Source: Enterobacter phage fGh-Ecl02
Sequence record: ON212266.1
Strand: one strand, 5' to 3'
DNA length: 64,000 bases
Part shown: positions 15,602 through 44,120 of the stretch, in pieces
Numbering within the stretch: position 1 is the stretch's first letter
Layout of the letters: every line of letters starts with the position of its first letter
Position numbers and translations under genes: made by a program
The notes under the pieces: generated by a model
Database searches by the model: none
Seen by the model: the letters and a program-made list of their open reading frames with translations, nothing else
Told to the model about the DNA's origin: nothing

Positions 15602-15652
15602 TCAATAACTGGCGAACGATGGGTTCACCGGGTTGAAAGGTAAGATTATATC

Positions 15653-15892
15653 ATGAAGAACAAAATGGTCGAAACTTCAGTAGAGATTGATCGCAATTGG
15701 GGATTGCTCCGCGCTAAAGGGTTCCGTCGTGTGTATGCGACCAAAGAAGTCTACGCACAGCGTCGTGACGTTATCATCAGCAAGAAAGGCAAAGAGTGGG
15801 TTGCTGAAGAAGTTGATGTCGAGACAGGCATCGTAGGAAAGGTAAAGGCCAAGGCCGTGATCCTCTTCGCTCTTCTGAAGCACATCAGTTAA
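15653..15892 (+). CDS. hypothetical protein
   Basis: 79 aa, start embedded in the TATATCATG motif, downstream of a TTTACT-N17-TATTAT promoter. Confidence 0.45.
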   Translation: MKNKMVETSVEIDRNWGLLRAKGFRRVYATKEVYAQRRDVIISKKGKEWVAEEVDVETGIVGKVKAKAVILFALLKHIS

Positions 15893-15907
15893 TTCTATAA
15901 CTTTGGG

Positions 15908-15925
15908 CGGGGTATGATTACCCCG
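15908..15925 (+). repeat. hairpin repeat copy A cggggta-TGAT-taccccg
   Basis: Near-identical to copies at 16466 and 50583. Confidence 0.6.
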
Positions 15926-15951
15926 TCTATTTGAAATGCAGGAACTATACC

Positions 15952-16458
15952 ATGACCGATCAACAAATTCAAGATTTATTTTACCTCGTCCATGATAAGT
16001 CCCACATCATGCGCCCCGGTACTGTTTCCCCTGCCGTCCGTGATCTGGTGCAAGAATTGCGCGAACCGCAGACGACCACACTTTATCGCGGGCTGCCTAA
16101 AGAGGACGTTGCGCGTTTAGAGATGATGTTTGAACGAGGCGACATGTTCCAGACATGGGATTCTTGTCTTAGCTTCAGTGAACTGAAGCATGTGGCCAAA
16201 AAATTTTCTAAATCGTACGGGACCAAAGCTGTTGCCCGCATTTGTTACAAACATCGAATCGGACTCCCGGAAGGGCTTAACGTCTATGGTTCTCTAGAAA
16301 AATTTGTGAACAAAGGCGATGAATCAGAAATGGATATGCTGGACTTGGCGTCCATGGAGAAAGAATGGATATTCTGCCAGCCTCGCGTCATACCAGTTTC
16401 AAGAAAAATGGCAACAGACGGGACGATGGTTTTTACCGTATCACTTGTTACCCTATAA
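15952..16458 (+). CDS. hypothetical protein
   Basis: 169 aa, Met8 of the track ORF, start motif GGAACTATACCATG after hairpin repeat copy A. Confidence 0.5.
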   Translation: MTDQQIQDLFYLVHDKSHIMRPGTVSPAVRDLVQELREPQTTTLYRGLPKEDVARLEMMFERGDMFQTWDSCLSFSELKHVAKKFSKSYGTKAVARICYKHRIGLPEGLNVYGSLEKFVNKGDESEMDMLDLASMEKEWIFCQPRVIPVSRKMATDGTMVFTVSLVTL

Positions 16459-16465
16459 ACCCACG

Positions 16466-16487
16466 GCGGGGTATGATTACCCCGCCC
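16466..16487 (+). repeat. hairpin repeat copy B ggcggggta-TGAT-taccccgcc
   Basis: See copy A. Confidence 0.6.
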
Positions 16488-16510
16488 ATTTGAAACCAAG
16501 AGACTATATC

Positions 16511-16885
16511 ATGAAAAAGTTAATCCTCGCTGTTGCCCTGCTGGGCGCTTCCTTTGCTGCTGTTTCCGCCCCTCCTGTCATCACCGGAGTGTCTACCAAC
16601 GGTGTTTATGCTTTCAAGGCGTATGGCCAAGACCTCGTTCTGTATAAGAACGGGAAGATGATTGAGCGCTGCGTATCAGACGACGTGAATCGTGGGATCG
16701 ACAATCAGGGTAGCCCATACGTCCTGGACATCTATTCCTGCTCCAACGGGACGAAGTCCTTTGGCGTCAAAACCTTTGGCAACGTCGCCGACGGTGGCTG
16801 GGGCTTCATGTTCGAAACCCGCAACCACCACCCGGTCAAGACCATGCAAGAAGAGTTCTTGATCTCTGTCGGGGGTACGTTATGA
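16511..16885 (+). CDS. secreted protein (cleavable signal peptide)
   Basis: MKKLILAVALLGASFAAVSA signal peptide. Start motif ACTATATCATG after hairpin repeat copy B. Confidence 0.5.
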   Translation: MKKLILAVALLGASFAAVSAPPVITGVSTNGVYAFKAYGQDLVLYKNGKMIERCVSDDVNRGIDNQGSPYVLDIYSCSNGTKSFGVKTFGNVADGGWGFMFETRNHHPVKTMQEEFLISVGGTL

Positions 16886-17169
16886 CACCATCCGAGAGAA
16901 GTTCTATCAAGGAGATGATCAGAGACAAGGCGTGTGTTGGCCATACTCAGTCAGAGAACATCTTGCGCCTGATGGTAATAAAGAACGATATCGATAACAG
17001 CCGATTCCAATCAGCGCTCTACGGGCTTCTCGAGTTCGTTCTCCGCCAGGCTGATCTTGGTCCTGTCGGTACTCTTGATGATCTAACCAAGCTGTTGAAC
17101 ACGGGCGGGGAAACTTTCGACACCGCTCGTATCCTGATTGACGGTGGACCTGAAGAAGACGAGGTATAA
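16882..17169 (+). CDS. hypothetical protein
   Basis: 95 aa, translationally coupled (ATGA overlap). Confidence 0.4.
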   Translation: MTPSERSSIKEMIRDKACVGHTQSENILRLMVIKNDIDNSRFQSALYGLLEFVLRQADLGPVGTLDDLTKLLNTGGETFDTARILIDGGPEEDEV

Positions 17170-17329
17170 TTTGGATAAAGAATTAGTTTGGGAAATTGTG
17201 AAGGGTGTCCTAGTAATAATCGCGGTGGTTTTCATCTTGGGTGGGAACTTCTTCTATTGGTTATTCCGATCCGACCAGAAACGTCGCGAACGCAAGGAGA
17301 AAGAGAGAAAGGATCGATGGATGCGCTAA
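17138..17329 (+). CDS. small membrane protein (1 TM)
   Basis: VLVIIAVVFILGGNFFYWLF hydrophobic helix followed by an RRERKEKERK tail. Start uncertain. Confidence 0.3.
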   Translation: MTVDLKKTRYNLDKELVWEIVKGVLVIIAVVFILGGNFFYWLFRSDQKRRERKEKERKDRWMR

Positions 17330-17361
17330 CTAAGGGATAACCCTATATCCCGAGGTGTGTC

Positions 17362-17811
17362 ATGTTCCTTACATCTTTTATTGACTGGTTGAACATCATT
17401 AACGGCCTGAGGATTCCTGTTGGGAACCTCGGGCTTTCTCGTTCTTCTATGCCGCAAATCGATGCCGACAAACAAGAAGATTTTCACAAATATCTTGAAG
17501 ACAACGGCGTGTCCATAGATGCTGTGCAAGTGCCCATCAAAATGCTTCGTCTTACCCAGAACGAAATCAATAAAATGAAGGTCTGGAAGATTATGAAGCA
17601 GATCAGAAATAAGAAACCTATGGGTCGAGTTTGGGTGTCTTCTGACAATTACGTTGTTGACGGTTCTCACCGATTTGTCGCTGCGTTGAACATGGACGGC
17701 AAACAGCGCATGAAGGTCTACAAAGTTGATTTGCCAGCGATGGAATTTGTTAAACTCGCTAAACAGTTTCAGGGTGTGCGATACAGAACGGTCAGCGATA
17801 CCCGTTTCTGA
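17362..17811 (+). CDS. ParB/sulfiredoxin-like nuclease domain protein
   Basis: VVDGSHRFVAAL matches the ParB-N DGxHR motif. Confidence 0.45.
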   Translation: MFLTSFIDWLNIINGLRIPVGNLGLSRSSMPQIDADKQEDFHKYLEDNGVSIDAVQVPIKMLRLTQNEINKMKVWKIMKQIRNKKPMGRVWVSSDNYVVDGSHRFVAALNMDGKQRMKVYKVDLPAMEFVKLAKQFQGVRYRTVSDTRF

Positions 17812-17833
17812 ATACGATAGTTTATTGAATCCC

Positions 17834-17862
17834 TTTACTCAACATGGTGAGCCGCCTATCAT
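17834..17862 (+). promoter_or_regulatory. early promoter TTTACT-N17-TATCAT
   Basis: Same family, upstream of the exported-protein gene. Confidence 0.5.
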
Positions 17863-17890
17863 TTCATCCAATGAAATAAGGAGAATCACC

Positions 17891-18577
17891 ATGAAACGTT
17901 TAATCCTCGGGGTCGTGCTGGCTGGTCTGGCATTACCCGCCGCTGCCAAGCTGAACTCCACAGGTGATAAACTGTGGTCCGATCTTTCCTATTGTGCTGG
18001 GTTCTCCCAGGCGGTTGCCATCGACAAGTCTGGTTCCATAGAGAACTTCGCTGAACTCTGGAACACAGGCAACGTCTCCACTGCTGTCGTCAATGCCGGA
18101 ATTGAGTTCAACCGTTACAAACAGGGAGCCTATAACCTCAAGGGCTACCTCAATGACGACGAATTTAACCGTGGAGGCATGGAGGCTGGCGATTTAATCA
18201 TGACTGGCCGAATGGGCACCCAAGGCCGAATGACAGTCAGACAGTGCCGTTCGCTCCCTTCTCCGGCATTACAGAAGGGTGTGCAGATAGGCCGCCGACA
18301 CCTGAACCTTATCAACGATGGTAACCAGTGCATCAAAGTATTCGAATACAGCGCTACGCAGACCTCTGATCGCGTCCTGAAGAAGGAATGGCGCACCCGC
18401 GCTCTTGGTCTCAGAGCCTGGCTGGTTGAGAACGATTATTATTTTGAGGATCGTGTTCAGAACGGTCTGAAAGACCTGGCCACGAATCTGAGCGTGAACC
18501 TTGATGATCCCCGCATGTCGCGCGAACTCCAGCAGACTCGTGTTGACTGCGACAATATGATGAAGGAGAACGAGTGA
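17891..18577 (+). CDS. exported protein (signal peptide), 228 aa
   Basis: MKRLILGVVLAGLALPAAA signal peptide. AGGAG SD. Downstream of a TTTACT-N17-TATCAT promoter. Confidence 0.5.
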   Translation: MKRLILGVVLAGLALPAAAKLNSTGDKLWSDLSYCAGFSQAVAIDKSGSIENFAELWNTGNVSTAVVNAGIEFNRYKQGAYNLKGYLNDDEFNRGGMEAGDLIMTGRMGTQGRMTVRQCRSLPSPALQKGVQIGRRHLNLINDGNQCIKVFEYSATQTSDRVLKKEWRTRALGLRAWLVENDYYFEDRVQNGLKDLATNLSVNLDDPRMSRELQQTRVDCDNMMKENE

Positions 18578-18903
18578 TGAAATGTAAAATCCTGCTCTTG
18601 TTGGTACTGATAGCCGGGTGTGTAAACGCCACGCCACCGTCCAAACTGAACACATGTGTGGCATGGATGGAGACGTATCAGCAGTTCCACCCAGATGACA
18701 AAGATACATCTATCCTCCTGTCTGACTTCGAGGGAGAGCTGAAGCGCCTTGATCTGTTCAGTGTTGATCAGATAGAGAATGCACTGGACCTTCCCATGAT
18801 GCTGACTGCGGCTGACAACAGTCCACAAACGAAGAAAGACCTGATGTATTGCCGGGGGATTGCCCAGGACTTTGTCGGATTTCAAAATAAAGTTTCGGGT
18901 TAA
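18574..18903 (+). CDS. lipoprotein (lipobox LIAGC)
   Basis: MMKCKILLLLVLIAGC lipobox. ATGA overlap with the upstream exported protein. Confidence 0.5.
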   Translation: MMKCKILLLLVLIAGCVNATPPSKLNTCVAWMETYQQFHPDDKDTSILLSDFEGELKRLDLFSVDQIENALDLPMMLTAADNSPQTKKDLMYCRGIAQDFVGFQNKVSG

Positions 18904-18942
18904 AATTTAGCCCTACAATGTGAACTGAAGGAATACACTGTG

Positions 18943-19809
18943 ATGCTCCTGACCAAAACAATCGCTGCGGCGATTATCGAAAAGAATAAGGCTTTTGCCC
19001 CCAACGCAGCCAAAGTTATGTTGGTACACGAAGACGCTCGCGTGATCTTCGCCGAGAAGTTCGAGATGGGCGCGAAGTTCTGGTATGCCGACAACTTACG
19101 TGAGAGCAAACTTCAGGGTATCATCCACAAACTGACTCTGGTGGCCAAGCGTAATGACCAGGGTGACTGGGTCGGCGTTTCTGACTTCAGTACGAAGATC
19201 ACCCCAAAGGCTCCGCTTTCTCGTCAAGAGCGCATTCTGAAAGCCCAGGAAAAGCTGCGTGCGGCTCGGAGTACCCCAAAGGCGAAACCAGATGCAAGCC
19301 CTGTCATCAAGCCAGCGGTTGTTCCTAAGTCCAAATACCTCCCGCCCGTGAGTCAAAAGGCTGTGAAGCAATTGGTTGAGAAGCGCAAGGGTGATGTTGT
19401 GATGAAGTCTGACTCTTCAGTGGAGTCGTTCAAGCCGGATCCAGCAGAAGTACAGGCGCTGGCAGAAAAGGTAAAGAATTCACAATTCATTTCCCTGCGT
19501 GAACTTGAACCGCCTACTCGCCGTCGTATCGCCAACGAGCTGTTTGTGTCGTTCAGGTCGGATGGCAAGATCGTCCTGTGCAAAGCCTTGCGTGACATCA
19601 TTCCGTGGACCACGTTGAACATGATGGTCACTCGCGACTTCAAGCGTTTTGGTATCATGCAAGGCAAGGACTACAACGTCAACCAGAGCGGGACTTATGT
19701 TAATCGCGCCATGTGTGACAAACTGACCTTCCCAGAAGATACCGGAACGATCCGTGTCGTTCTGAATTGGGACGACAAGCTGAACATGTATGTTGGCGAT
19801 TTCCAATAA
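18943..19809 (+). CDS. hypothetical protein
   Basis: 288 aa with a basic Lys/Pro-rich central region. Confidence 0.45.
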   Translation: MLLTKTIAAAIIEKNKAFAPNAAKVMLVHEDARVIFAEKFEMGAKFWYADNLRESKLQGIIHKLTLVAKRNDQGDWVGVSDFSTKITPKAPLSRQERILKAQEKLRAARSTPKAKPDASPVIKPAVVPKSKYLPPVSQKAVKQLVEKRKGDVVMKSDSSVESFKPDPAEVQALAEKVKNSQFISLRELEPPTRRRIANELFVSFRSDGKIVLCKALRDIIPWTTLNMMVTRDFKRFGIMQGKDYNVNQSGTYVNRAMCDKLTFPEDTGTIRVVLNWDDKLNMYVGDFQ

Positions 19810-19865
19810 TCAATAACCTCGGGCGGCTTATCATAAAGCTGCCCTTTCATTTGAGTGACTATATC

Positions 19866-20528
19866 ATGGAAAAACTTTATTCTATTATCGTCGGTCCTGA
19901 TCCTGACGGATTATTCTTCGCCCCGTTGTCTTATATTGCCCACGCCCGTATCGGTAGCCATTACGCATATTGCACACGTGGCCACGACGGTTCCAATGTC
20001 CTCCATTATAGCCGCCTGAACGATTTCCTGGCACTTCAACCAGAAGATGTTGTGCTGGCGCGTCGCGTGTTCATCGACTTCAACGCGATGCACAACAACG
20101 AAATCGACGCTCGCTATCATGCCATGCGTTCTATGGAAGGGGGAGACTGCATTTATCGTATCGACCATTTTAGTGAGTTTACCGAATGTATTGATTGGTT
20201 TATCTCTGATAAAGTGATGGGTGAAAGAATCGTCACAACTCCGTGGGCACATGCGGAACAACTTCGTGTGTCTACCGATGCGTACAAAGAAGTCGACAAT
20301 CTGTGCAACAAGTTCCGCATCTCGGTGACCTGTAATCAAGACCTGGGCGAAGAGATACAATGGACAGCTGAGTCTCCTCATTTCAGTGGCCTGGTGATGA
20401 CGGCCAAAACCCGTTCCCGTGCTGTTGTCCAGTTAGTACTCTGGGCGTTCTACCAGCGCACCCCGTTCTCATACATGGGACAGAAAGAGATTGATGAACT
20501 CCTGAAGTCTCACGCGGTGGAGGTGTAA
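19866..20528 (+). CDS. hypothetical protein
   Basis: 220 aa, Met34 of the track ORF, start motif GACTATATCATG after a terminator hairpin. Confidence 0.5.
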   Translation: MEKLYSIIVGPDPDGLFFAPLSYIAHARIGSHYAYCTRGHDGSNVLHYSRLNDFLALQPEDVVLARRVFIDFNAMHNNEIDARYHAMRSMEGGDCIYRIDHFSEFTECIDWFISDKVMGERIVTTPWAHAEQLRVSTDAYKEVDNLCNKFRISVTCNQDLGEEIQWTAESPHFSGLVMTAKTRSRAVVQLVLWAFYQRTPFSYMGQKEIDELLKSHAVEV

Positions 20529-20529
20529 T

Positions 20530-20970
20530 ATGGCTGGTGTATGGTGTGATGTCTTGCTGGTTCGTTACAGCGTAAATGGGTGTGTTCAAGTGCGTTCCGC
20601 CTTCTATCCAGTACCGTTCTCCTCTGGTGGTCTTACAGCTCAGAGGGTGTTAAGTATCGAAGCAGAACTGAACGCGAAGACATATATCGGCGATACACAA
20701 GTGTTGGGATACGATCTTCTGAACGAAATGTTGATCGATGAAGATAAGGTAGAAACCATTATTGTTAGCCGTCAAGAAATGGAGGTCTTGATGAAACCGG
20801 AAGGCACCGAAAAGACTGAAGTTCAAACGGTGTCTGTGCCTGTCACACCAACACAGGAACGCCTTGATGCCATTGCTGGATTATTCACGTATGGATTTTG
20901 TGATGATCGCATGGCTCGTGGTATCTATGCCGCCGCACTGGGCGTTGAGAAACAAACGGAGCAAATATGA
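20530..20970 (+). CDS. hypothetical protein
   Basis: 146 aa, coupled to the upstream gene. Confidence 0.4.
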   Translation: MAGVWCDVLLVRYSVNGCVQVRSAFYPVPFSSGGLTAQRVLSIEAELNAKTYIGDTQVLGYDLLNEMLIDEDKVETIIVSRQEMEVLMKPEGTEKTEVQTVSVPVTPTQERLDAIAGLFTYGFCDDRMARGIYAAALGVEKQTEQI

Positions 20971-23985: not shown

Positions 23986-24020
23986 AGTTTCATTCCTCTT
24001 TCTATAAAACCAGTTTGGGA

Positions 24021-24028
24021 TATTTATA
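24021..24028 (-). promoter_or_regulatory. T4-type late promoter TATAAATA (minus strand) for the 23985 gene; overlaps the rnh start region
   Basis: Reverse complement of tatttata. Confidence 0.5.
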
Positions 24029-24030
24029 TC

Positions 24031-24558
24031 ATGATAGAAATTTATTCTGACGGGGGTTCTAACCCGAAGACCAACCAGGCCGCAGGCTGGGCATTTGTCA
24101 TCAGGCCAATAACGGGTATGCAATGGAAGGTGTTCTTCGGCCATCTACCTCCCCCGTCCACTAACAATATCGCCGAGTTGTTGGGTGTGACCAACGCATT
24201 GAAGCTGCTGTGGGCATTCTCAGGAAAGGGTGAGCGCAGAATACCAAAGGCAACAATTTGGTCTGACAGCCAATATGCCATCAAGAGTGTCACCGAATGG
24301 CGAACGAAGTGGGAGTATCAGGGTTTCCCAGAAAAGAACGTTGAACTCATCAAAGAACTGTTCAGAATCTATGATCTCGTTTGTTCAATTTGTGATGTTG
24401 AACTAAAATGGGTTAAGGGTCATGCGGGGCACGAAGGCAACGAACTTGCCGATGACTGGGCCACAGCAGCCAAAAACGACAGCAACTTCCTGATTGAGAA
24501 TGACAAGATCTCGGTGAAGAAGGTTGTTGGATCTTTTGATGAATTTATCGGTATCTGA
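24031..24558 (+). CDS. rnhA: Ribonuclease HI
   Basis: IEIYSDGGS...GWAFVI, NNIAELLGVTNAL, IWSDSQYAI and KWVKGHAGHEGNELAD match the RNase HI catalytic DEDD and HxxN regions. Start motif TATATCATG. Confidence 0.8.
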   Translation: MIEIYSDGGSNPKTNQAAGWAFVIRPITGMQWKVFFGHLPPPSTNNIAELLGVTNALKLLWAFSGKGERRIPKATIWSDSQYAIKSVTEWRTKWEYQGFPEKNVELIKELFRIYDLVCSICDVELKWVKGHAGHEGNELADDWATAAKNDSNFLIENDKISVKKVVGSFDEFIGI

Positions 24559-28803: not shown

Positions 28804-28953
28804 ATGAACTACGAACAAATTAAACTCGCAATACTGATCTTTGCATGCATCATTGACATCGTTGCATTTTCTCGTGAAGTCGAAAGGAAAAACTACCTGA
28901 AATCACTGGGATATCTCGGGTTCTCTGTCTGGTTCTGTTATCTACTTGCAGGT
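28804..28953 (+). CDS. small hydrophobic membrane peptide (49 aa), below ORF-track cutoff
   Basis: ATG 2 nt after the gp46 stop, MNYEQIKLAILIFACIIDIVAF..., read manually. Confidence 0.3.
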
Positions 28954-28964
28954 CAAATCCTGAA

Positions 28965-29294
28965 ATGAAAGTCGTACACTTCAAGAAGGAGCCATATGAC
29001 GTCTACATTGGTCGGCCTGGTAAATGGGGGAACCCGTTTGAGGTCAAAGACCATGGACGAGGCGTCTGTATCGAACTGTTTGAGGACGTCCTGTATGTGC
29101 GCCTGATTGAAGGGGATATCACTGAGGATGAACTCCTTGATCTTGACGGGAAGGTATTGGGGTGCTGGTGTAAGCCGCGCCCCTGCCACGGAGATGTTTA
29201 CGTCAAAGTCGTCGGGCGTATTAAACTATTCCGCAAGCTGGGTAAATCCTTTACCGAACATCTGAGACAAACGTATGTCAGAAAACAAAGATGA
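28965..29294 (+). CDS. DUF4326-like protein
   Basis: YIGRPGKWGNPF and LGCWCKPRPCHGDV are hallmark motifs of this phage-associated family. Confidence 0.5.
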   Translation: MKVVHFKKEPYDVYIGRPGKWGNPFEVKDHGRGVCIELFEDVLYVRLIEGDITEDELLDLDGKVLGCWCKPRPCHGDVYVKVVGRIKLFRKLGKSFTEHLRQTYVRKQR

Positions 29295-29563: not shown

Positions 29564-29598
29564 GAAGGGCACTAAATACCACGTGCCCTTTATCTTTT
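29564..29598 (+). terminator. intrinsic terminator
   Basis: agggcac-taaatacc-gtgccct + ttatctttt. Confidence 0.65.
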
Positions 29599-29656: not shown

Positions 29657-30271
29657 ATGACGATGACAACGTTGAAGGCCATGGCCTTGTCCGTGACCTT
29701 TACCATTGCCAGCGGGAATGTGCACGCTTCCCAAAGTACCACCCAATGTGATTATAATTTCTCCGAGCAACAACTTAATACGTTGGCAACCGCCTATCAC
29801 GTAGGCAAGACACAAGACCTTGGTTACACCCTGGCTGCCATATCCTGGCGAGAGAGCCGCGCTGGTGAAGATGTAGTGTCAATGCGATACGATCTCAAGG
29901 CGGCCAACATGGGAGCCTTTCAGAACAAGGTGAAGACAGTTGGTGATCGCGAAGGTTGTAAGAATCGCAAGTGCTATGCCAATGTCGCCATAAAGTTGCT
30001 GACCGACCAAGAATATGCCGCGCAAGCCGCCCTCGATGAGATGCAGTTCTGGCTGACCTATCACAATCAGAATATCCGCAAATCCCTCTCCTCTTACAAT
30101 GCTGGCTTCGCCCGTAATCCCGCATCGAACGCTTATGCTGCCGACGTCGTGAAGAAAGCTAAATATCTTCAGAAATGTGTGTCTTTCGAAGGCCGGACCA
30201 TCTCCGAGGTAGATCCTCAGGTGATCGCCATGAACAAGCACACAATAGAGAAACTGAAGAGGACAAGATAA
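29657..30271 (+). CDS. secreted lytic transglycosylase (SLT domain) with signal peptide
   Basis: N-terminal signal peptide MTMTTLKAMALSVTFTIASGNVHA. ISWRES (catalytic Glu), GAFQ and SYNAG match SLT family-1 motifs. Confidence 0.6.
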   Translation: MTMTTLKAMALSVTFTIASGNVHASQSTTQCDYNFSEQQLNTLATAYHVGKTQDLGYTLAAISWRESRAGEDVVSMRYDLKAANMGAFQNKVKTVGDREGCKNRKCYANVAIKLLTDQEYAAQAALDEMQFWLTYHNQNIRKSLSSYNAGFARNPASNAYAADVVKKAKYLQKCVSFEGRTISEVDPQVIAMNKHTIEKLKRTR

Positions 30272-30909: not shown

Positions 30910-30938
30910 AAATAATTCAATAAAAGGGGCTTTGCCCC

Positions 30939-30967
30939 TTTACTTCTTCAATATCCTTCCCTATACT
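30939..30967 (+). promoter_or_regulatory. early promoter TTTACT-N17-TATACT fused to the upstream terminator hairpin
   Basis: Stem-loop aaaaggggctttgcccctt overlaps the -35 element. Confidence 0.6.
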
Positions 30968-31015
30968 TCATTCCATAAGCAGTACGACACCAACTTGAAT
31001 AGCAGGAACTATATC

Positions 31016-31351
31016 ATGACACAACTCAAGAACTTCACCGCCGATGACATGTTTGCCTTCCAGGGTGCTGAGCACTTTGCTGACGGCTCCGTACCTCGCA
31101 TCTACTACTTCTCCGACGAAGAAATGGAAGATTTCTTCTCCCTGATGGAAAAGGACTACGAACCAGACGACTTCGTTTATATCATCCATCACGCTGAAGG
31201 ACTGACCTTGGGTTGGACGGCCAACAATGAACCAGAAGAAGTAAACTTCCCTGAAGGTATCATGTCAGAGCGCGTCGAATATCTACTGGAAGCCCTGGAC
31301 CCCCACACCCTCCCGCTCTGGGCGATGTCTGTAGCCCAAGTTCAAAAATAA
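31016..31351 (+). CDS. hypothetical acidic protein
   Basis: 111 aa. Early promoter TTTACT-N17-TATACT at 30939-30967 and GGAACTATATCATG start motif. Confidence 0.45.
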   Translation: MTQLKNFTADDMFAFQGAEHFADGSVPRIYYFSDEEMEDFFSLMEKDYEPDDFVYIIHHAEGLTLGWTANNEPEEVNFPEGIMSERVEYLLEALDPHTLPLWAMSVAQVQK

Positions 31352-31426: not shown

Positions 31427-34168
31427 ATGTCAAAGCTAAGTTTCCTCCAGTTCATGCAGGAAAGAGATCAGTTGGACGAAGCGTTCAACTCCGCTCCGTA
31501 TGAGCTGACCATGGGTAAGAAGAACGCAGGCGATGTGTTCTTCACCTTCGTCGACGAAGATGAAAAGGAATACCGCATTCAGTTCTATACTCCTCAGGGG
31601 CTGGGTAAGAGTGTTCGTCAGGTTTTCATCGGCCAGAAGCGCGGCTCCGTCTATCCTGACGCCATCGCTCGCTTCAAGAACCCAATGCGCGTTATCGCTT
31701 CCATGATCGAAGCGACCAAACAATTCATGGCGACTCCTCTGGGCAAGACCATCGATGGCTTTGCTGTCAACTTCTCTAAGAAAGCGCTGGATCGTGGGAT
31801 GACCCTGATCCCGAAAATCATCCGCCAATCCGGCCTGAAGCAGAAACTGAATGTCATGGACCTGACCTACGCGCCTGTCCCTGACCGTGGTTATGTGTGG
31901 CTGGTACGCAAGGGTAAAGATCCGGCTCAGGTATTTGACGGTCCGAAGATGCAGGGCATCACCTGGGATGATCCAGATAAGGTCGGCGACGTTCCGGTTC
32001 AGAACAATGCTCCGGATGTGGGTGTGTCATCTTCTGTTGATAATTCCAACGGATGGAAATTAACTTCAAACGGGGATCAGCCCATGTTGATATGGGCTGG
32101 TAAGGAGAGAGGCCGCATGAACACGGCAAATATCGCTCCCCACTACAATGAGCCGGGCGTGTATGTTGGCGCATACATGAATGAGAAACCTGTGCGTGGG
32201 CAAAGTGCTGATTTCATTACTCGTCAGTTGAAATTACCACAAGTCCCTATCAGTATCCTGAATGATTTCACCGCAGCGTCCACAAAATTCTGGAAAGGTT
32301 CTCAACAGAAATCTGCGCCTGTTGTACCGGCAGGTTCAGACAGAAATAACCCAGCTAACATTATCGGTTCTGGAACTGCTGTTATTGATGCCAAACGACT
32401 TGGTGCTCGAGAAGTAAACGTGGAACGATTCAAAAACGGTGTTCGCATGCGTTCTCAAAACGGTGACGTCGACATCAGTATTTCTGACCCAGACTTTTCA
32501 AATGCAGCAAGTGCTACTGATGCTGCTACTGCCTCTGTTGTGGTCAAGAACGGGCGTTACGAAGGTGCCATCAATTCAAAGCGCAAGATTGCCCGCACCT
32601 CGAACGAGCAGGGTACTGAATGGGATATCATCGGTGTCAACGGGGAAACCCTTGTCTCTATCAAGTTGAACAAAGTGTCTAAATCCGCATCGGATTCGAC
32701 CGAGAGTGCAACCAGTGTTGATCAATTACGTGACAGCGGTTTCATCGCTCGTGTTCTGGGTATCATTGATACCAACGTTGGGCTGGACACTTCTATCCTT
32801 CCTGGTGAAAACATCCGTCGCGTGGGTGCTGGTCGTTACACGACGGCAGGCGGGTTGGTTATCATTGTCAACTTCACAAACGTCCTCGCTGGTTTCGTTC
32901 AATACTCAGTTTTCAGCGAAATTGCTGAAGAGGAGAACGTGGCCAAAGGTAGCGCCCGTGACGTCGCCAAGGCGGTAATTGCGTCCATCTTTGAGGTTGC
33001 TAAGACCCAGTACACTGGCAAATGGGAAATTAGCGCAGTGCCAACAAGCGCTCCATATCCTATCAAAGCCATTCGCCGTTCTCGGGGCTGGGGTTATGTG
33101 GAAACCGCAAACTGGACTCTGACAGTGTCCGACGCTGTCCTGAACCGCGTGAAGCCAGGGAACACTGCTCTACTGGAACTCAACAAAGAGCCTCTGCGCG
33201 GCAAGCACCTGCTGGAAATCATCCCAGAGAAGGGCGACAAGACCCTGATGCTGAAAGATCGTAGCGGGACCATCTATGGTTCTATCGACCTGAATGCCCA
33301 GGGTGCTGATCTGGTCAACTCTGGAACCCTGAAGATGCCACGCAACGCCATGGTGTTTGGTGAGACTGTCAACGGTATGTCCATCACTTGGTCTGGTGTC
33401 AATTTCCCGAAAACTGGGAAGTATGATGGTGCTGTATTGACCACGAATGTGACCTATTACTACGACAAAGGAAAGGTCGCATTCACGCCTATGGTATCCA
33501 ATAAAGGTCGTACCCTGAACAATCCGAAGACATATGAACTTACTTTGAAGAAAGATATTGTTCAGGCCGTGATCGATGAAATTTCTTCTAACATGGAAAT
33601 GATATCTCGGAATATGCAAACTCTGAAAAGCACGTCGTATAATCCGAAACAAGTATTTTTGGACGACATTTCTGTTGACAACAACGGTTCAGTCCTTTGG
33701 CGCGGGTACGACATGGCGGATCGCCGCACTAATGATTTTATGTTGGGTATCCTATCCAAAGAAACCGAGAGACTGGAGAAAGAGTCGAGTACTGCGAAGA
33801 AGACTGGTGCCGACCTTGCGGCATACGCTGACTCCATCCGCGACAACGCACCAAAAGGCCGCGACCTGGATTGGCAGATCTATGCAAGCCGTGATGGTCA
33901 GACTCTGAACGTGGACTGGGATATCACCTTCCGCCGCAACACAACTGAAGGGGCATATCGCGAGTTCAAATCTCAGATTGACCGCGCCAACCAGTACCTG
34001 CAGACTCTGTACCGGGATGCGAAGTCCAAGGGTTACAACCCGACTGAACCAAACCTGATGACTCTGGATAGCGCCCAGCAGTCTGACCAGTGGGCACGAG
34101 ACTACGGGGAAGGCGCATACAGCGAGTACGAGCAGTCCCTGGGTGGTAACATGCAGATTAAGATCTGA
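31427..34168 (+). CDS. hypothetical large protein (913 aa), no recognisable domain
   Basis: Long uninterrupted ORF with AGGAG SD, terminators on both sides. Confidence 0.6.
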   Translation: MSKLSFLQFMQERDQLDEAFNSAPYELTMGKKNAGDVFFTFVDEDEKEYRIQFYTPQGLGKSVRQVFIGQKRGSVYPDAIARFKNPMRVIASMIEATKQFMATPLGKTIDGFAVNFSKKALDRGMTLIPKIIRQSGLKQKLNVMDLTYAPVPDRGYVWLVRKGKDPAQVFDGPKMQGITWDDPDKVGDVPVQNNAPDVGVSSSVDNSNGWKLTSNGDQPMLIWAGKERGRMNTANIAPHYNEPGVYVGAYMNEKPVRGQSADFITRQLKLPQVPISILNDFTAASTKFWKGSQQKSAPVVPAGSDRNNPANIIGSGTAVIDAKRLGAREVNVERFKNGVRMRSQNGDVDISISDPDFSNAASATDAATASVVVKNGRYEGAINSKRKIARTSNEQGTEWDIIGVNGETLVSIKLNKVSKSASDSTESATSVDQLRDSGFIARVLGIIDTNVGLDTSILPGENIRRVGAGRYTTAGGLVIIVNFTNVLAGFVQYSVFSEIAEEENVAKGSARDVAKAVIASIFEVAKTQYTGKWEISAVPTSAPYPIKAIRRSRGWGYVETANWTLTVSDAVLNRVKPGNTALLELNKEPLRGKHLLEIIPEKGDKTLMLKDRSGTIYGSIDLNAQGADLVNSGTLKMPRNAMVFGETVNGMSITWSGVNFPKTGKYDGAVLTTNVTYYYDKGKVAFTPMVSNKGRTLNNPKTYELTLKKDIVQAVIDEISSNMEMISRNMQTLKSTSYNPKQVFLDDISVDNNGSVLWRGYDMADRRTNDFMLGILSKETERLEKESSTAKKTGADLAAYADSIRDNAPKGRDLDWQIYASRDGQTLNVDWDITFRRNTTEGAYREFKSQIDRANQYLQTLYRDAKSKGYNPTEPNLMTLDSAQQSDQWARDYGEGAYSEYEQSLGGNMQIKI

Positions 34169-34794: not shown

Positions 34795-34843
34795 GAGGTT
34801 GCACTAGACGACGCCAGGGCGAAAGAACTTGGTCTGTAACTGG

Positions 34844-34875
34844 ATCCCCCTAAATACAGGGGGATTTCTTTTTCT
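34844..34875 (+). terminator. intrinsic terminator after the late 189-aa gene
   Basis: atccccc-taaataca-gggggat + ttctttttc. Confidence 0.8.
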
Positions 34876-37171: not shown

Positions 37172-37199
37172 AACTTTTTAATTCACATCACCTCCCTCC

Positions 37200-37264: not shown

Positions 37265-37293
37265 TTTACTCTTCAATAATGATGCACTATTAT
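37265..37293 (+). promoter_or_regulatory. early promoter TTTACT-N17-TATTAT with A/T-rich UP element (37224-37262)
   Basis: tttaaaatacttcaaaaatattttaaaaaattattgaaaaag lies upstream of the -35. Confidence 0.6.
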
Positions 37294-37366
37294 AGTTCAC
37301 ATAGGGCGGCAACACACCGCCGAATGAAAAGTGAAATGAACCAACTACATTATGAGGAATTATATC

Positions 37367-37855
37367 ATGGCTACCACCAAAACTCTGATCACCAACGGCA
37401 CCATCTCTTTCGAACTGAACACCGAAGTTGCTAAAGTTGAAATGTTCCGCATCGCTCAGGCAGCTGGCTTCACTGGTGGCAAAACTTCCTTCATGAACCT
37501 GCTGAACGGTAAAGTGAAAGCGACTAACGGCTTCACCCTGGTAGAGCAGGTTGTGGTTGATAAAGCTGTGGTTGCTAAGACTGCTGATAAAGTTGGTATG
37601 CTGAAAAACCTGGGTCACGACATCCACATTGTCGAAGCAAACACCGAAACTTACGGCACCATCGTAGTCGGTAAAGGTCGCATCCAGCTGAACCCGCTGA
37701 ACAACGGTTCCTTCTCTGTGATGGTCTTCCCTAAGAAGGGGTACGACAACACCGACATCGTGAAAGCTGTTGGCGGCGAAGCAAAAGCTCAGTACGTCAA
37801 AATGGGTAAACTGAGCGCCGACGCAGTTGAAGCTCTGGTGAGCAAACTGGCCTAA
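37367..37855 (+). CDS. hypothetical abundant early protein, 162 aa
   Basis: Strong UP-element plus TTTACT-N17-TATTAT promoter at 37265-37293, GAGGAATTATATCATG start, highly biased codon usage. Confidence 0.5.
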   Translation: MATTKTLITNGTISFELNTEVAKVEMFRIAQAAGFTGGKTSFMNLLNGKVKATNGFTLVEQVVVDKAVVAKTADKVGMLKNLGHDIHIVEANTETYGTIVVGKGRIQLNPLNNGSFSVMVFPKKGYDNTDIVKAVGGEAKAQYVKMGKLSADAVEALVSKLA

Positions 37856-38834: not shown

Positions 38835-38838
38835 CTCA

Positions 38839-39779: not shown

Positions 39780-39862
39780 GTAACTCGCCAACCCTCCCCG
39801 CCGCCTTCAATCTACGAGGGCGGCGTATAATAAAACCTGCGTAAACAAACCCGAGGAACACC

Positions 39863-42145
39863 ATGATTAACGTTATAAAACGTGACGGATCTTCTGTCCC
39901 ATTTGATATTGAGAAACTACACGCAGTCGTAGACCGCGCCTGTGATGGCCTGTCTGGTGTGTCAATGTCAGAGGTGATCGCTGCATCGAAGATTCAGTTC
40001 ACCGACAACATGAGAACAGATCGCATTCAGGATATCCTCATCCAGGCTGCGGCTTCACTGATCTCTGTAGACAAACCCAATTACCAGTATGTGGCTGCTC
40101 GTCTGAAGTCGTATGATCTGCGCAAGGCTGTCTACGGTCAGTACAAGCCGCCTCACCTGCTGGACATCTTCGTCAAGAACATCAAACAGCGCGTGTATGA
40201 TCGTGAGTTCCTTGATCTCTACACGACCGAAGAGTTCAACGAGCTGAACGATGTCATCAATCACAAACGCGATAAGAACTTCACGTGGGCGGCCATGGGT
40301 CAGCTGACTGAGAAGTACCTGTTGCGCGACCGTTCCAAGAAAGACAGCAAGATCTTCTACGAAACCCCTCAGGTCATGTACATGGGCATCGCCATGGCGT
40401 TGTTCTCTAACTGGGACAAAGCCAGCCGCCTGGAGATGGTGAAAAAGTTCTATGAATATGCCAGCACAGGCAAGTTCAGTCTTCCCACCCCGATTATGGC
40501 AGGTGTTCGTACTCCTACCCGTCAGTTCAGTTCCTGTGTGTTAATCAAGACTGATGACACCCTGAACTCTATCAACGCAACAGCCAAGACCATCGTTGAC
40601 TATGTGTCCAAACGTGCGGGTATCGGCTTCGATGTCGGGGCAATCCGTGGGATTGGTAGTCCTATTCGCGGCGGAGAGATGGTTCACACAGGCCTGATCC
40701 CGTTCATCAAGTATCTCACTGGGGCACTCAAATCGTGCTCTCAGGGCGGCATTCGTGGTGGTGCAGCAACAGCGTACATCCCTCTGTGGCATTACCAGTT
40801 CGATGACGTCGTTGTTCTGAAGAACAACCGTGGTACTGAAGAAAACCGCGAACGCCGTATCGACTATGGCATTCAGATCAACCGCGTGATGTTTGAGCGC
40901 CTGGTTGCCAAGCAGCCTCTGTATCTGTTCGACCCGAAAGACAACCGCGAAATGTATGAAGCATACTTCGCTGACGTTGACAAGTTCCGTACTCTGTATG
41001 AGAACATGATCAAGGCCGCCGATGCCGGTTTGGTTCGTGCTAAGAAGTTACAGGCAGAAGAGGTGTTCCAGATGCTGTTAGACCAGCGTTCAGACACAGG
41101 CCGCATCTACATCGCATTTGTCGATCACATGAATGAATACAGTCCATTCAACCTAGACACGATTTATTCTTCAAATCTTTGTTTAGAAATCGCCCTGCCG
41201 ACCCGTGAGTTTGAGCAGTACAACGATGAAAACGGGCGCGTGGCTCTGTGCACCCTGGCTTCCTTCAACCTGACGGCGTTCGAAGATCCTACGGAAATGG
41301 AAGACGTGGCGTTCGTGTTGGTGTCTGCGCTGGACATGCTGTTGGAATATCAGGACTATCCAGCGATTCAGGCTCGCAAGGCTGTTGAAGACTATCGTCC
41401 TCTGGGTGTTGGTATCGTGAATGTGGCTCACTTCCTGGCCAAGAACTTCACGGGCTATGGCTCACCAGCTGGTCTTGAAATGCTGGATGCGTGGATGGCA
41501 CACCTGCACTTCTATCTGGTCAAGGCATCCAACCGTCTGGCTATGAAGTTCGGGGCTTGCAAACGCGGAACCATCCACAATAATGGGCAGGTCACCGCCG
41601 ATCTTCAGCCGCTTCCACTTGATATCCTACCAAATGGTAAGAAGCCGGAAGGGATGGCATACGGGCTGGATTGGGATGGGTTGAAGGATAATCTGAAGAC
41701 CTATGGTATCCGCAACGCTACTCTGCTGGCAGTAGCCCCTACCGAAAGCTCCTCACAGGTCCTCAACGCAACGAACGGCATTGAGCCACCGAAGGGCTTG
41801 GTGAGCATCAAGGGTAGCAAGGACGGCACTTATAAGCAGGTCGTCCCGGACGTTGAGACCCTTGGACCGATGTATGACCTCAAGTGGGACCTGGACTGTA
41901 TTGAGTACCTGAAGACCGCTGCTGTAATCCAGCGCTGGGTTGACCAGTCCATCAGTACCAACACTTGGTATGACCCAGAGAAGTACCCTGACAGCAAGAT
42001 CCCTCGCGCCAAGATGATGCAGGATATCCTGTCGTTCTATATGTGGGGTGGCAAGACTCTGTATTACAACACAAACAAGGACGCCAAGGAAGACGAAGAG
42101 CTGAAGCAGGCTGAGGAAACTCAGTGCGATAGCTGTGTTGTATAA
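39863..42145 (+). CDS. nrdA: ribonucleotide reductase class Ia alpha subunit
   Basis: ATP-cone VIKRDGSSVPFDIEKL, catalytic NLCLEIALP and C-terminal Cys pair. 760 aa. Confidence 0.9.
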   Translation: MINVIKRDGSSVPFDIEKLHAVVDRACDGLSGVSMSEVIAASKIQFTDNMRTDRIQDILIQAAASLISVDKPNYQYVAARLKSYDLRKAVYGQYKPPHLLDIFVKNIKQRVYDREFLDLYTTEEFNELNDVINHKRDKNFTWAAMGQLTEKYLLRDRSKKDSKIFYETPQVMYMGIAMALFSNWDKASRLEMVKKFYEYASTGKFSLPTPIMAGVRTPTRQFSSCVLIKTDDTLNSINATAKTIVDYVSKRAGIGFDVGAIRGIGSPIRGGEMVHTGLIPFIKYLTGALKSCSQGGIRGGAATAYIPLWHYQFDDVVVLKNNRGTEENRERRIDYGIQINRVMFERLVAKQPLYLFDPKDNREMYEAYFADVDKFRTLYENMIKAADAGLVRAKKLQAEEVFQMLLDQRSDTGRIYIAFVDHMNEYSPFNLDTIYSSNLCLEIALPTREFEQYNDENGRVALCTLASFNLTAFEDPTEMEDVAFVLVSALDMLLEYQDYPAIQARKAVEDYRPLGVGIVNVAHFLAKNFTGYGSPAGLEMLDAWMAHLHFYLVKASNRLAMKFGACKRGTIHNNGQVTADLQPLPLDILPNGKKPEGMAYGLDWDGLKDNLKTYGIRNATLLAVAPTESSSQVLNATNGIEPPKGLVSIKGSKDGTYKQVVPDVETLGPMYDLKWDLDCIEYLKTAAVIQRWVDQSISTNTWYDPEKYPDSKIPRAKMMQDILSFYMWGGKTLYYNTNKDAKEDEELKQAEETQCDSCVV

Positions 42146-42215
42146 ATTGGTCTAAACCTACTACCGTTATATCATCAGGGGTGAGAGATCACCCCTTATT
42201 AATCAGGAAAGAAAC

Positions 42216-43319
42216 ATGAGCGAACAGAAACAATTCTCCGTATTCGACCCAAGCTCGGACAACACTGGTCTACCGTTCTTCGGTGACCCAGTGAGCATTC
42301 AGCGTTACGATGTCGTGGCCTGGCCATTCGTACAGAAGTGGTATGAGAAAGGTCTCAGTCAGTTCTGGCGTCCTGAAGAGGTGGACATCACCAAGGACAA
42401 GGCAGACTTCTCTACTCTGAACGAAGCAGAGAAACACGTCTACTTCAGCAACCTGAAGCGCCAGACCATGCTGGACTCTATCCAGGGTGCGGCTCCGTTC
42501 GAGGCGTTTGGTCCATGGGCGTCTACCCCTGAAATGCAGTTTGCTGTCCTTGAATGGACGCGCCAGGAAGCCATTCACTCTTTATCGTACACCCACATTT
42601 TGCGCAACACTGTGAACGATCCAGGTATCGTGTTTGACCACGTACTGGATGTTGTGGAGATCGTGGACTGTGCTCACCAGATCAGTGTGTACTACGATGA
42701 CATGGTACAGTACAGTGGCATGCGTATGGCCGGACGCATCTTCACCCGAGAAGATCTGATGAATGCCAAACGCGCATTCTGGCGTGCTCTGTTTGCTGCC
42801 AACACACTAGAAGGCATCCGCTTCTACGTGTCCTTTGCATGCTCTTGGGCATTCACACAGTTCCAGAAGAAGATGGAAGGCAATGCCAAAATCATTCGAC
42901 AGATCGCCCGTGATGAGCAGGATCACCTGATCCTGACCCAGACGCTGCTAAACCGCCTGCCTGGTATGGACCCCGACTTTGCAATCATCCGTGAGGAACT
43001 GCGTGGTGAGATGACCCAGATGTTCCTGGACGTGGTTCATCAGGAGAAGGAGTGGGCGAACTACCTATTCAAAGACGGTTCCATCCTGGGGCTGAACGCC
43101 AAGATCCTTCATCAGATGGTAGACTGGCTGGCAACCCACCGAATGGGCGCTATCGGGCATCCATATCCCGGTGAACCTCGCAAGGAGAACCCAGTCCCAT
43201 GGATTAATGACTGGCTAGATAATAAGGCAATGCAGTACGCGTTGCAGGAAGCGGAAGCTCCTGATTATCTGATGGGTGTACTGACTGGTTCGGTATCCGA
43301 TGGCCTCAAATTCGCTTAA
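42216..43319 (+). CDS. nrdB: ribonucleotide reductase beta subunit
   Basis: Ferritin-like di-iron motifs (EAIHSLSYTHIL, QDEQDHL) at standard spacing. 367 aa. Confidence 0.85.
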   Translation: MSEQKQFSVFDPSSDNTGLPFFGDPVSIQRYDVVAWPFVQKWYEKGLSQFWRPEEVDITKDKADFSTLNEAEKHVYFSNLKRQTMLDSIQGAAPFEAFGPWASTPEMQFAVLEWTRQEAIHSLSYTHILRNTVNDPGIVFDHVLDVVEIVDCAHQISVYYDDMVQYSGMRMAGRIFTREDLMNAKRAFWRALFAANTLEGIRFYVSFACSWAFTQFQKKMEGNAKIIRQIARDEQDHLILTQTLLNRLPGMDPDFAIIREELRGEMTQMFLDVVHQEKEWANYLFKDGSILGLNAKILHQMVDWLATHRMGAIGHPYPGEPRKENPVPWINDWLDNKAMQYALQEAEAPDYLMGVLTGSVSDGLKFA

Positions 43320-43328
43320 AGGTGAGAA

Positions 43329-43553
43329 ATGATTACGATCTATTCCAAACAAGGTTGCGCTCAGTGTGTAACAGCCGAAAATCTGTGCAAAATGAAAGGG
43401 CTGGAACACAAGATCCTCAAGCTGGACAAAGATTACCGGCTGGAAGAACTTCAGCAGTTGACGGGTAAGCCGCGCGTGTCGATGCCTGTAATCGTCCTCG
43501 CTGACCAGACCGTGACCGACGTTAATGGACTCGCCGCCAGCCTTAAACGCTGA
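43329..43553 (+). CDS. nrdC: glutaredoxin/thioredoxin-like protein (NrdC-like)
   Basis: 74 aa, IYSKQGCAQCV CxxC active site, immediately after nrdAB. Confidence 0.55.
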   Translation: MITIYSKQGCAQCVTAENLCKMKGLEHKILKLDKDYRLEELQQLTGKPRVSMPVIVLADQTVTDVNGLAASLKR

Positions 43554-43579
43554 CAAGCCAAAGCCCCTCAATGAGGGGC

Positions 43580-43608
43580 TTTACTTCTATAATCCCTGCG
43601 CTTATACT
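43580..43608 (+). promoter_or_regulatory. early promoter TTTACT-N17-TATACT fused to the nrdC terminator hairpin
   Basis: Same architecture as 30939. Confidence 0.6.
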
Positions 43609-43658
43609 TCCCAGTAATTCATTGGCATTCGCCACAAATTGAAAGCGGGAACTATATC

Positions 43659-44120
43659 ATGACAAACAAAGTACTCACCAACCCACTGCACAACTTCGGT
43701 TACATTCAACTCCCTCTGGTGATCGACACCCTGTACGCCGACGACAAAGAAGAGATCTGCTGGTCACCCACCGCACTGATTGAACGCGAAATCTTCAAGT
43801 CTGTTGTTGATGTCATGTTCCGTATCGGTCGCAATGGACCTCTGGTCTACCTCGGCAAGGTGACTGAGTTGAAGACAAGCCACAACGAACGCTTCCTTCG
43901 TATCGATACAACGGGGTGTTCTCATCAGGACTTCAACACATTGCGCAATTATGTTCTGGTCAACCGCCCGGTCAGTCAACACCGCCCGTATCTGACTTCA
44001 ATGCACATCGACAATTTCATCACCGACGTGCACCTCCGCGCCGAAACCCTCCATGAAGAGGAAACAGGCCGAGCTATCGACACAGTCTTAAATATGGTTG
44101 TGATCACCCTGGCGGAGTAG
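43659..44120 (+). CDS. hypothetical protein
   Basis: 153 aa. Terminator + TTTACT-N17-TATACT promoter + GGGAACTATATCATG start. Confidence 0.45.
   Translation: MTNKVLTNPLHNFGYIQLPLVIDTLYADDKEEICWSPTALIEREIFKSVVDVMFRIGRNGPLVYLGKVTELKTSHNERFLRIDTTGCSHQDFNTLRNYVLVNRPVSQHRPYLTSMHIDNFITDVHLRAETLHEEETGRAIDTVLNMVVITLAE

Follow-up and report, generated by a model that had tools for sequence, protein, structure and literature searches.

A repeated start-codon motif in Enterobacter phage fGh-Ecl02 as the probable end of PeSL-type regulatory cassettes

The motif at gene starts and its composite form

We analysed a motif that is repeated at gene starts in a stretch of 64,000 nucleotides (nt) of Enterobacter phage fGh-Ecl02 (sequence record ON212266.1; this whole stretch is called the window in the following). 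Its core is the 9-mer TATATCATG, which includes the start codon ATG. Given nucleotide identities of 96-98% to Escherichia phages A221, AV101 and vB_CECAV_050 and of about 92% to Shigella phage Ag3, we place the window in an Agtrevirus-like member of the Ackermannviridae, i.e., a Vi1-like phage distantly related to T4. In a phage database, about 270 Ackermannviridae genomes match the window. Its gene content includes a T4-type replication and recombination set with regA. Relatives from further away are Vi01, a Kuttervirus of another subfamily than the window, and the Serratia phage phiMAM1 (Miltonvirus). For the genome-wide motif test, the complete A221 genome was put together from four stretches. 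Start-context counts are based on the gene starts of simple gene calls (79 in the window, 167 in A221, 180 in Vi01).

The window holds seven exact matches of TATATCATG, all on the + strand (15647, 16505, 19860, 24025, 31010, 37361, 43653), and the ATG of each opens an open reading frame (ORF) of 79-220 amino acids (aa). The mean expectation from shuffled sequences is 0.54, and none of 100 shuffles reaches seven copies. An initial annotation, made from the sequence without database searches, had reported the 9-mer at seven gene starts with about 0.5 occurrences expected by chance, which is thus reproduced. Its two variants, at genes 15952 (TATACCATG at 15946) and 62640 (TACATCATG at 62634), are also present, and another copy of TACATCATG at 8900, beyond the range of that annotation, starts a 672-aa ORF (ATG 8906). 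The respective initiation regions are:

8885..8908, + strand: variant CTGAAACAGGAAGACTACATC-ATG of the 672-aa ORF 8906-10924
15632..15655, + strand: composite initiation region GTTGAAAGGTAAGATTATATC-ATG of the 79-aa ORF 15653-15892
15931..15954, + strand: composite initiation region TTGAAATGCAGGAACTATACC-ATG of the 168-aa accessory ORF 15952-16458, which is absent from A221
16490..16513, + strand: composite initiation region TTGAAACCAAGAGACTATATC-ATG of the 124-aa ORF 16511-16885
19845..19868, + strand: initiation region TTTCATTTGAGTGACTATATC-ATG of the 220-aa ORF 19866-20528; CTATATC-ATG is retained in Vi01
24010..24033, + strand: RNase H start GGGATATTTATATC-ATG with the exact 9-mer, without TTGAA and AGGAAC parts
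30995..31018, + strand: composite initiation region TTGAATAGCAGGAACTATATC-ATG of the 111-aa ORF 31016-31351
37346..37369, + strand: initiation region ending in ATGAGGAATTATATC-ATG of the 162-aa ORF 37367-37855; TTACATC in A221 and Vi01
43638..43661, + strand: composite initiation region ATTGAAAGCGGGAACTATATC-ATG of the 153-aa ORF 43659-44120
62619..62642, + strand: variant TTGAAGAGTTACAACTACATC-ATG; the likely true start 62652 follows 12 nt downstream

The enrichment at start codons holds for whole genomes, a check that had been proposed along with the motif. In A221, all 10 exact copies of TATATCATG share one strand and coincide with ORF starts. The relaxed form TAYAYCATG has 20 copies there, 17 of them on the motif strand and the majority at ORF starts. 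Vi01 shows the same strand and ORF-start pattern. Both genomes carry 10-20 motif copies. Furthermore, TATATC is the top hexamer at positions -6..-1 (6/79 starts in the window, 9/167 in A221), and ATC is by far the top trimer at -3..-1 (13/79 window, 31/167 A221, 25/180 Vi01). Since ATC is the commonest trimer before starts, we regard the 9-mer as the sharp core of a wider start-context preference of the family. The ATC-ATG class also takes in late structural genes, namely gp23, gp20, gp22 and gp6. With regard to other lineages, ATC directly precedes the start of 14-19% of all genes in A221, Vi01 and the window, compared to only 7% over the corresponding 60 kb of phiMAM1.

The 9-mer forms the 3' part of a longer composite. 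Aligning 24 copies from three genomes on their ATG gives the consensus TTGAA (-21..-17), N4, AGGAAC (-12..-7), TAYAYC (-6..-1), ATG, usually followed by A. The sub-motifs co-occur, i.e., TAYAYC is associated with the TTGAA box with an odds ratio of 28 (Fisher P = 1e-7). The AGGA at -12..-9 is 8 nt ahead of the AUG, which is the usual Shine-Dalgarno spacing. For the full 24-nt pattern TTGAANNNNAGGAACTATATCATG we found 20 exact matches in IMG/VR, where by estimate well under one is expected; 19 of them are in contigs of 154-161 kb and the remaining one in a 5.9-kb fragment. The element is thus real, strongly non-random and, as its IMG/VR matches are confined to such contigs, specific to the Ackermannviridae. 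phiMAM1 retains the TTGAAA-N3-AGGAACT part, followed by a TTTAC(A) or TATACG spacer, and the TATATC part is therefore lineage-specific.

Individual copies differ in how much of the composite they carry. It had been claimed that most are preceded by AGGAA or GGGAA and, further upstream, by TTGAAA or TTGAAT. This stands for TTGAA(A/T/G) at six genes (15653, 15952, 16511, 31016, 43659, 62640) and for the purine part at four (AGGAAC or GGGAAC at 15952, 31016 and 43659, GAGGAAT at 37367). It does not stand for the weaker purine runs at 15653 (GTAAGAT), 16511 (AGAGAC) and 19866 (GTGAC), nor for 24031 and 37367, where the TTGAA box is absent. The RNase H copy at 24031 is probably a look-alike, because its TTGAA and AGGAAC parts are absent and because Vi01 and phiMAM1 have TTATAC-ATG in its place.

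The fixed ATG register, the restriction to the coding strand and the AGGA 8 nt before the AUG support the first suggestion that this is an initiation-region element of the mRNA and not a -10 box. A promoter reading of TTGAAA...TATATC or TATCAT was rejected given the 9-nt spacing between TTGAA and TATATC and a would-be -10 that abuts or includes the ATG. Structure prediction showed no fold shared among the motif start regions, and the reverse complement GATATAG of a possible antisense partner is neither enriched nor clustered in A221. Pairing of the spacer with 16S rRNA was considered as well. CUAYAYC could pair, allowing for G-U, with GGUGUAG, which we take to be the rRNA sequence near 16S position 685. 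This candidate found no support here. That 16S segment is base-paired inside the 30S subunit, and for pairing of the spacer with an extended anti-Shine-Dalgarno (GAUC) there is no alignment.

Promoter-like sites, hairpins and exchanged reading frames

Next, we relate the motif to the sequences upstream of it. Among seven intergenic + strand sites of the form TTTAC(T/A)-N16-18-TAnnnT in the window, five are followed by a motif gene, with 49-74 nt from the -10 hexamer to the ATG; three of these promoter-like sites are also found by a generic promoter scan. A TAYAYC-ATG gene follows 6/9 of the TTTACW-N16-18-TAnnnT sites in A221 (P = 1e-5) and 3/7 in Vi01. Late-like YTAAATA sites were sought upstream of motif genes and none was found; several ATC-only genes have one. 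The promoters that the initial annotation had placed at 15573, 30939, 37265 and 43580 all exist as sequence matches, its leaders of 42-67 nt agree with the gap given above, and its assignment of the motif to early genes is borne out as a link to early-type promoter-like sites. Most of these sites directly follow, or overlap with, a G+C-rich hairpin, and a second cassette type, ahead of 15952, 16511 and 19866, has a -10-like TATGAT or TATCAT within the hairpin loop:

15537..15601, + strand: hairpin CCCCAACAAACGTTGGGG (15537-54), then TTTACT-N17-TATTAT, upstream of 15653
15893..15927, + strand: second cassette type, TTCTAT-N14-TATGAT with the hexamer in the loop of GGGCGGGG/ACCCCGTC (hairpin 15905-27), then TATTTGAAA
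16465..16486, + strand: hairpin repeat GGCGGGGTATGATTACCCCGCC, the right-hand direct repeat flanking ORF 15952-16458, which encloses TATGAT
19821..19844, + strand: related hairpin GGGCGGCTTATCATAAAGCTGCCC, upstream of 19866
30923..30967, + strand: hairpin AAAGGGGCTTTGCCCCTTT (30923-30941) overlapping the -35 of TTTACT-N17-TATACT, upstream of 31016
37265..37293, + strand: early-promoter-like TTTACT-N17-TATTAT, upstream of 37367
43561..43608, + strand: hairpin AAGCCCCTCAATGAGGGGCTT (43561-81) abutting TTTACT-N17-TATACT, upstream of 43659
62544..62608, + strand: hairpin GCCCAGTACTTGACTGGGC (62544-62), then TTTACT-N17-TAATAT, upstream of 62640

These upstream parts and the motif form a constant cassette, behind which the ORFs change. 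Over all loci compared, at least 23 protein families without detectable mutual similarity follow the motif. The leader starting with ATAAGCAGTACGACACCAACTTGAA is found ahead of at least six different ORFs, the hairpin cassette ahead of three, and the 26-nt initiation region CCAACTTGAAACGAAGGAACTATATC ahead of at least two unrelated ORFs. We mapped similarity breakpoints between the window and nine relatives. Similarity breaks 1-8 nt past the motif ATG at 15955-15957 (six relatives), at 31019-31020 (five) and at 15656 and 43666. Of five breakpoints right after a start codon, four are at motif starts, although only 10/81 starts carry the motif (binomial estimate about 0.001). Behind the 31016 leader, the ORF is swapped for unrelated ORFs in Vi01 and three other relatives (L011, L012, L013).

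Two indels locate the junctions more closely. ORF 15952-16458, an indel with regard to A221, is flanked by two copies of a hairpin-TTGAAA-motif unit (hairpin-ATTTGAAA-motif), and the single copy of A221 at this locus is a hybrid, i.e., it corresponds to the left copy up to ATTTGAAA and to the right copy beyond. Vice versa, the A221 ORF 66770 (91 aa), an indel with regard to the window, is flanked by the perfect 16-nt repeat AGGAACTATATCATGA.

To obtain a sample that is unbiased for the motif, 21 contigs were drawn via the conserved neighbour NrdB. At the respective site (43659 in the window), all 21 contigs have the hairpin, TTTACT-N17-TATACT, a leader and TAYAYC-ATG in the same place. The leaders there are nevertheless of at least four types, and at least five different ORFs come first behind the element.

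Some motif genes invite separate remarks. The ortholog of the 79-aa gene in Vi01 and in another relative (L012) lies within an operon, without the motif and with a different N-terminus. For the 168-aa ORF 15952-16458, there is a match (E = 3e-14) to PHROG 832 'RNA polymerase ADP-ribosylase' (Alt-like), in the C-terminal part of that family; according to the CBA120 paper, ViI-like phages lack Alt or ModA homologs (PMC3184105). At gene 62652, the conserved protein begins at the second ATG (62652), and the motif ATG 62640 is in frame 12 nt upstream. The motif is retained here across genera, though not at the real start. In the respective Vi01 stretch (L007, around 31886-31873), the motif ATG is 13 nt upstream of the conserved start, out of frame, and opens a 27-codon ORF. 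In both phages, the bases ATGAG(A)GG supply the Shine-Dalgarno of the real start. The upstream motif ATG may thus open a small ORF ahead of the gene, or it may be left over from a cassette junction.

A second promoter-like class, TTC(A/T)AT-N11-17-TAT(A/G)AT, occurs seven times on the + strand (12382, 15893, 39806, 49398, 50570, 55562, 61799) and never on the - strand, compared to 0.085 expected. Six of the seven sites are intergenic, of which five end 28-33 nt before a gene start and the sixth, at gp32, 75 nt before. The class serves nrdA and gp32 among others, and its -10-like hexamer is often in a hairpin loop preceded by G's. Judged by these sequences, it may be a delayed-early or middle promoter type so far undefined for Ackermannviridae.

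Proposed interpretation as PeSL-type cassettes and competing readings

We consider it most probable (at roughly 0.6) that the motif is the ribosome-binding end of repeated PeSL-type regulatory cassettes. By definition, a PeSL (promoter-early stem-loop) combines a stem-loop with an early sigma-70-like promoter that it adjoins or overlaps, and its 3' end carries the Shine-Dalgarno and the start codon of the gene that follows (PMC4122927, PMC2839356). The promoter consensus of the PeSLs in T4/PST is TTTACW-N17-TAYWAT (PMC4122927). PeSLs flank variable ORFs, and recombination between copies deletes or inserts ORFs, with crossovers between the -10 or the Shine-Dalgarno and the ATG (PMC4122927, PMC2839356). 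They are known from the T4-like phages RB49/phi1, T4/PST and KVP40/nt-1 (Arbiol et al. 2010, PMC2839356; Comeau et al. 2014, PMC4122927).

The cassettes described above share all sequence-level features of this definition. A stem-loop is beside or overlaps with an early-type promoter-like site that matches the very consensus of T4/PST, and Shine-Dalgarno and start codon form the 3' extremity (AGGAAC-TAYAYC-ATG). Many dispersed copies are found beside small variable accessory ORFs, and close relatives differ by indels and replacements with junctions inside the cassette, namely the breakpoints at the motif ATG and the two hybrid junctions. There are also differences. The host genomes are Ackermannviridae instead of T4-like myoviruses, and the 3' end is far more uniform, as a 25-nt composite whose 7-nt spacer hardly varies. 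In addition, mini-circles as well as promoter and terminator activity were shown for the RB49/phi1 PeSLs, whereas the present cassettes are putative ones recognised by their sequence. A literature search for papers that link PeSLs to Ackermannviridae found none. No relevant paper was found on transcriptomes or regulatory motifs of Ackermannviridae either, and for TATATCATG only unrelated matches, mostly primers, were returned.

Under the PeSL reading, each cassette would consist, in this order, of stem-loop, early promoter, leader, Shine-Dalgarno and start codon. It supplies a hairpin and the T4-early-type promoter-like TTTACT-N17-TATACT, or the second type with the -10-like hexamer in the loop, followed by a leader of 25-65 nt. 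In the terminal TTGAA-N4-AGGAAC-TATATC-AUG, AGGA would act as Shine-Dalgarno and CUAUAUC as an A/U-rich spacer of about 7-8 nt, and the first ORF of the transcript would begin at the cassette's AUG. The present data show the anatomy, the link to early-type promoter-like sites, the constancy of the cassette ahead of changing ORFs and the hybrid junctions. We infer that the promoters are active, and active early, that translation from the motif is strong, and that no dedicated trans-acting factor is needed. Since the same 16-45 nt precede many genes, recombination between copies, within one genome or between co-infecting relatives, could delete, insert or replace the ORF behind a cassette. An incoming ORF would be joined at its ATG to a ready promoter, leader and ribosome-binding site. 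Every exchange would copy or preserve the motif, and the copies would stay alike because of this and because of selection for efficient initiation. Cassettes with exchanged ORFs, which the initial annotation had overlooked, can alone explain much of the motif's copy number.

The T7 gene 10 leader AAGGAGAUAUACAUAUG, a strong phage ribosome-binding site used in expression vectors, offers another comparison. It likewise has a Shine-Dalgarno followed by an alternating A/U spacer and serves as a fixed cloning junction at the ATG, through which any ORF obtains a promoter and a ribosome-binding site. In contrast, the present element is natural, occurs in many copies per genome and has with its upstream TTGAA box a part without known counterpart.

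Several observations weigh against the PeSL reading in this simple form. The Shine-Dalgarno is poor in some copies (AGAGAC, GTGAC), and the start regions are hardly more open, i.e., the predicted unpaired probability over -18..+6 is 0.55 for motif genes vs. 0.47 for others (P = 0.07). Across 19 distinct sequences of the NrdB-linked site, the spacer shows no change at all at -8..-5, -3 and -1, and only T or C at -4 and -2, even where both leader and ORF are replaced (L062, L065). Efficient initiation normally needs no single exact 7-nt spacer. A spacer that strict fits specific recognition at least as well as homogenisation by recombination. The spacer change in phiMAM1 fits either concerted evolution or co-evolution with a factor. 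We therefore leave a substantial, though clearly smaller, share of the probability to the readings by specific recognition taken together, i.e., a RegA operator, a target of another RNA-level factor, or a DNA-level site.

The first of these had been proposed by the initial annotation, whose overall interpretation is partly supported. Here, the RegA homolog would bind AACUAUAUCAUGA on early mRNAs, block the 30S subunit and shut off translation of the first cistron as RegA accumulates. That the phage encodes RegA is correct:

6146..6610, + strand: regA homolog, 154 aa (PF01818 E = 2e-34; T4 RegA structure 1REG E = 4e-26)

The protein is 44% identical to T4 RegA. (Compared to T4 RegA, it has 23 additional N-terminal residues, an extension conserved in the homologs of Vi01 and phiMAM1; in the A221 record, just a 59-aa fragment of regA is annotated.) RegA sites known so far are A+U rich and unstructured, cover the AUG or immediately precede it, and have a 5' poly(A) tract and no strict consensus (PMC3014915). 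The motif resembles the operators that T4 and RB69 have on their prereplicative mRNAs in its position at or directly ahead of the AUG, in its A+U richness and in having no predicted structure, and its invariant spacer calls for a specific reader. In terms of sequence, the likeness ends. While T4/RB69 sites carry a 5' poly(A) tract (AAAAUUAUG..., AAUAAUAAUAA), a comparison of AACUAUAUCAUG with the RegA sites quoted in PMC3014915 revealed neither such a tract nor a AAAUUAUG-like core, and the motif differs from both consensus sequences from SELEX. It is also nearly invariant where T4 RegA sites notably have no clear consensus. Moreover, no copy is found at the orthologs of the T4/RB69 RegA targets 44, 45, 62, regA itself, rIIB, dexA and dNMP kinase. 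At gene 62652, the motif is 12-13 nt away from the real start and, in Vi01, out of frame. The comparison across genera is compatible with either outcome: RegA is 89% identical in Vi01, where the motif is kept, and 56% in phiMAM1, where the spacer differs, such that co-variation is possible. As the motif shares position and composition with RegA sites but not their sequence, and as the target orthologs have no copy, the operator reading is unsupported, and we deem it unlikely.

Even less likely is that another trans-acting RNA factor reads the motif, be it a phage endoribonuclease that, like T4 RegB with S1, would recognise about 11 nt from the Shine-Dalgarno GGA onwards, or a phage-encoded protein or RNA by which translation of early leaders would be activated or timed. 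The T4 sites of RegB/S1, located in early Shine-Dalgarno regions, follow the 11-nt consensus GG*AGRAYARAA, whereas RegB by itself recognises GGA. Like these, the motif spans about 11-12 nt, begins at the Shine-Dalgarno GGA of early genes and is tied to early-type promoter-like sites; its spacer is strongly constrained, and a 'RegB family' protein is annotated in this region of some relatives. However, none of 10 window copies has GGAG, the 3' half does not match RAYARAA, and about one third of the copies have no GGA at all. The ORF labelled 'putative RegB' in phage ZQ1 corresponds to window positions 29657-30271, and a search for RegB-like Pfam or PDB matches in this ORF and its neighbours found none. 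The RegB-type version of an RNase target, which had been offered as an alternative to RegA, therefore appears to fail, since GGAG is missing and no recognisable RegB is found in the window. An RNA partner is not indicated either, as no complementary anti-motif is enriched in the A221 genome.

That the motif acts at the DNA level instead of as an RNA signal, be it as a promoter element or as the core at which a dedicated mechanism recombines or captures genes, seems still less probable. Such a site would account for breakpoints exactly at the ATG, for an inserted ORF between 16-nt direct repeats and for a 10-nt core that is kept between varying flanks, and TATCAT and TTGAAA resemble -10 and -35 hexamers, respectively. 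Yet TTGAA is 9 nt from TATATC (10-11 nt from TATCAT) instead of 16-18, and a -10 ending in ATG would start transcripts inside the gene it precedes. Restriction to the coding strand, start-codon register and a correctly spaced AGGA are what an RNA or translation signal predicts. Furthermore, of the two crossovers mapped, one falls within ATTTGAAA and thus ahead of the core, which fits ordinary homologous recombination along the whole repeat, and no recombinase is associated with the copies. In its most specific form, which we judge slightly more doubtful again, a dedicated ORF-capture system would use the core ACTATATCATG(A) as its fixed joint, in the way that integrons use their attachment sites. 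A site-directed mechanism would swap ORFs on one side of the core and leaders on the other, and reading by this machinery would keep the core conserved. If true, any captured ORF would at once be expressed from the resident early promoter and ribosome-binding site.

Finally, chance or a compositional artefact, for which only the A/T richness upstream of start codons speaks, is practically negligible given 7 copies vs. 0.54 expected, 10/10 in A221, 20 matches of the 24-nt pattern and 21/21 at the NrdB-linked site.

Implications and further observations

Early gene regulation of Vi1-like phages is essentially uncharted, despite their wide use in biocontrol and diagnostics. The CBA120 genome paper reported that early promoters were not identifiable by informatics (PMC3184105), and the words promoter and transcription are both absent from a 2024 review of the Ackermannviridae. 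The motif and its cassettes provide concrete candidates for early units and initiation regions. They would also account for the places and the manner in which relatives gain, lose and swap accessory ORFs, and PeSL-type shuffling would reach beyond T4-like phages. The ATG junction could serve as a natural insertion site for reporter or payload genes with early expression.

Among minor observations, the 8-mer TTCAATAA occurs in 12 copies where about 2 are expected, most of them intergenic and beside promoter-like sites and hairpins:

8812, 15601, 21016, 30916, 37272, 54595, 60886, 61799, 62571, + strand: TTCAATAA
17822, 37251, 50529, - strand: TTCAATAA

Late-promoter-like (C/T)TAAATA sites are found at 29575-29590, 34842-34867 and around 38010, 34195 and 52665; two of them are in the loop of a G+C-rich hairpin, e.g., GGATCCCCCTAAATACAGGGGGATTT. 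ORF 28804-28968, directly after gp46, starts with AAGGATTGATC-ATG, and its similarity to four relatives breaks at 28806, i.e., right after an ATC-ATG start, which therefore marks another point of ORF replacement. The 913-aa ORF 31427-34168 has no Pfam match, and nearly all relatives compared have a different or differently sized segment in its interior (about 32000-33800).

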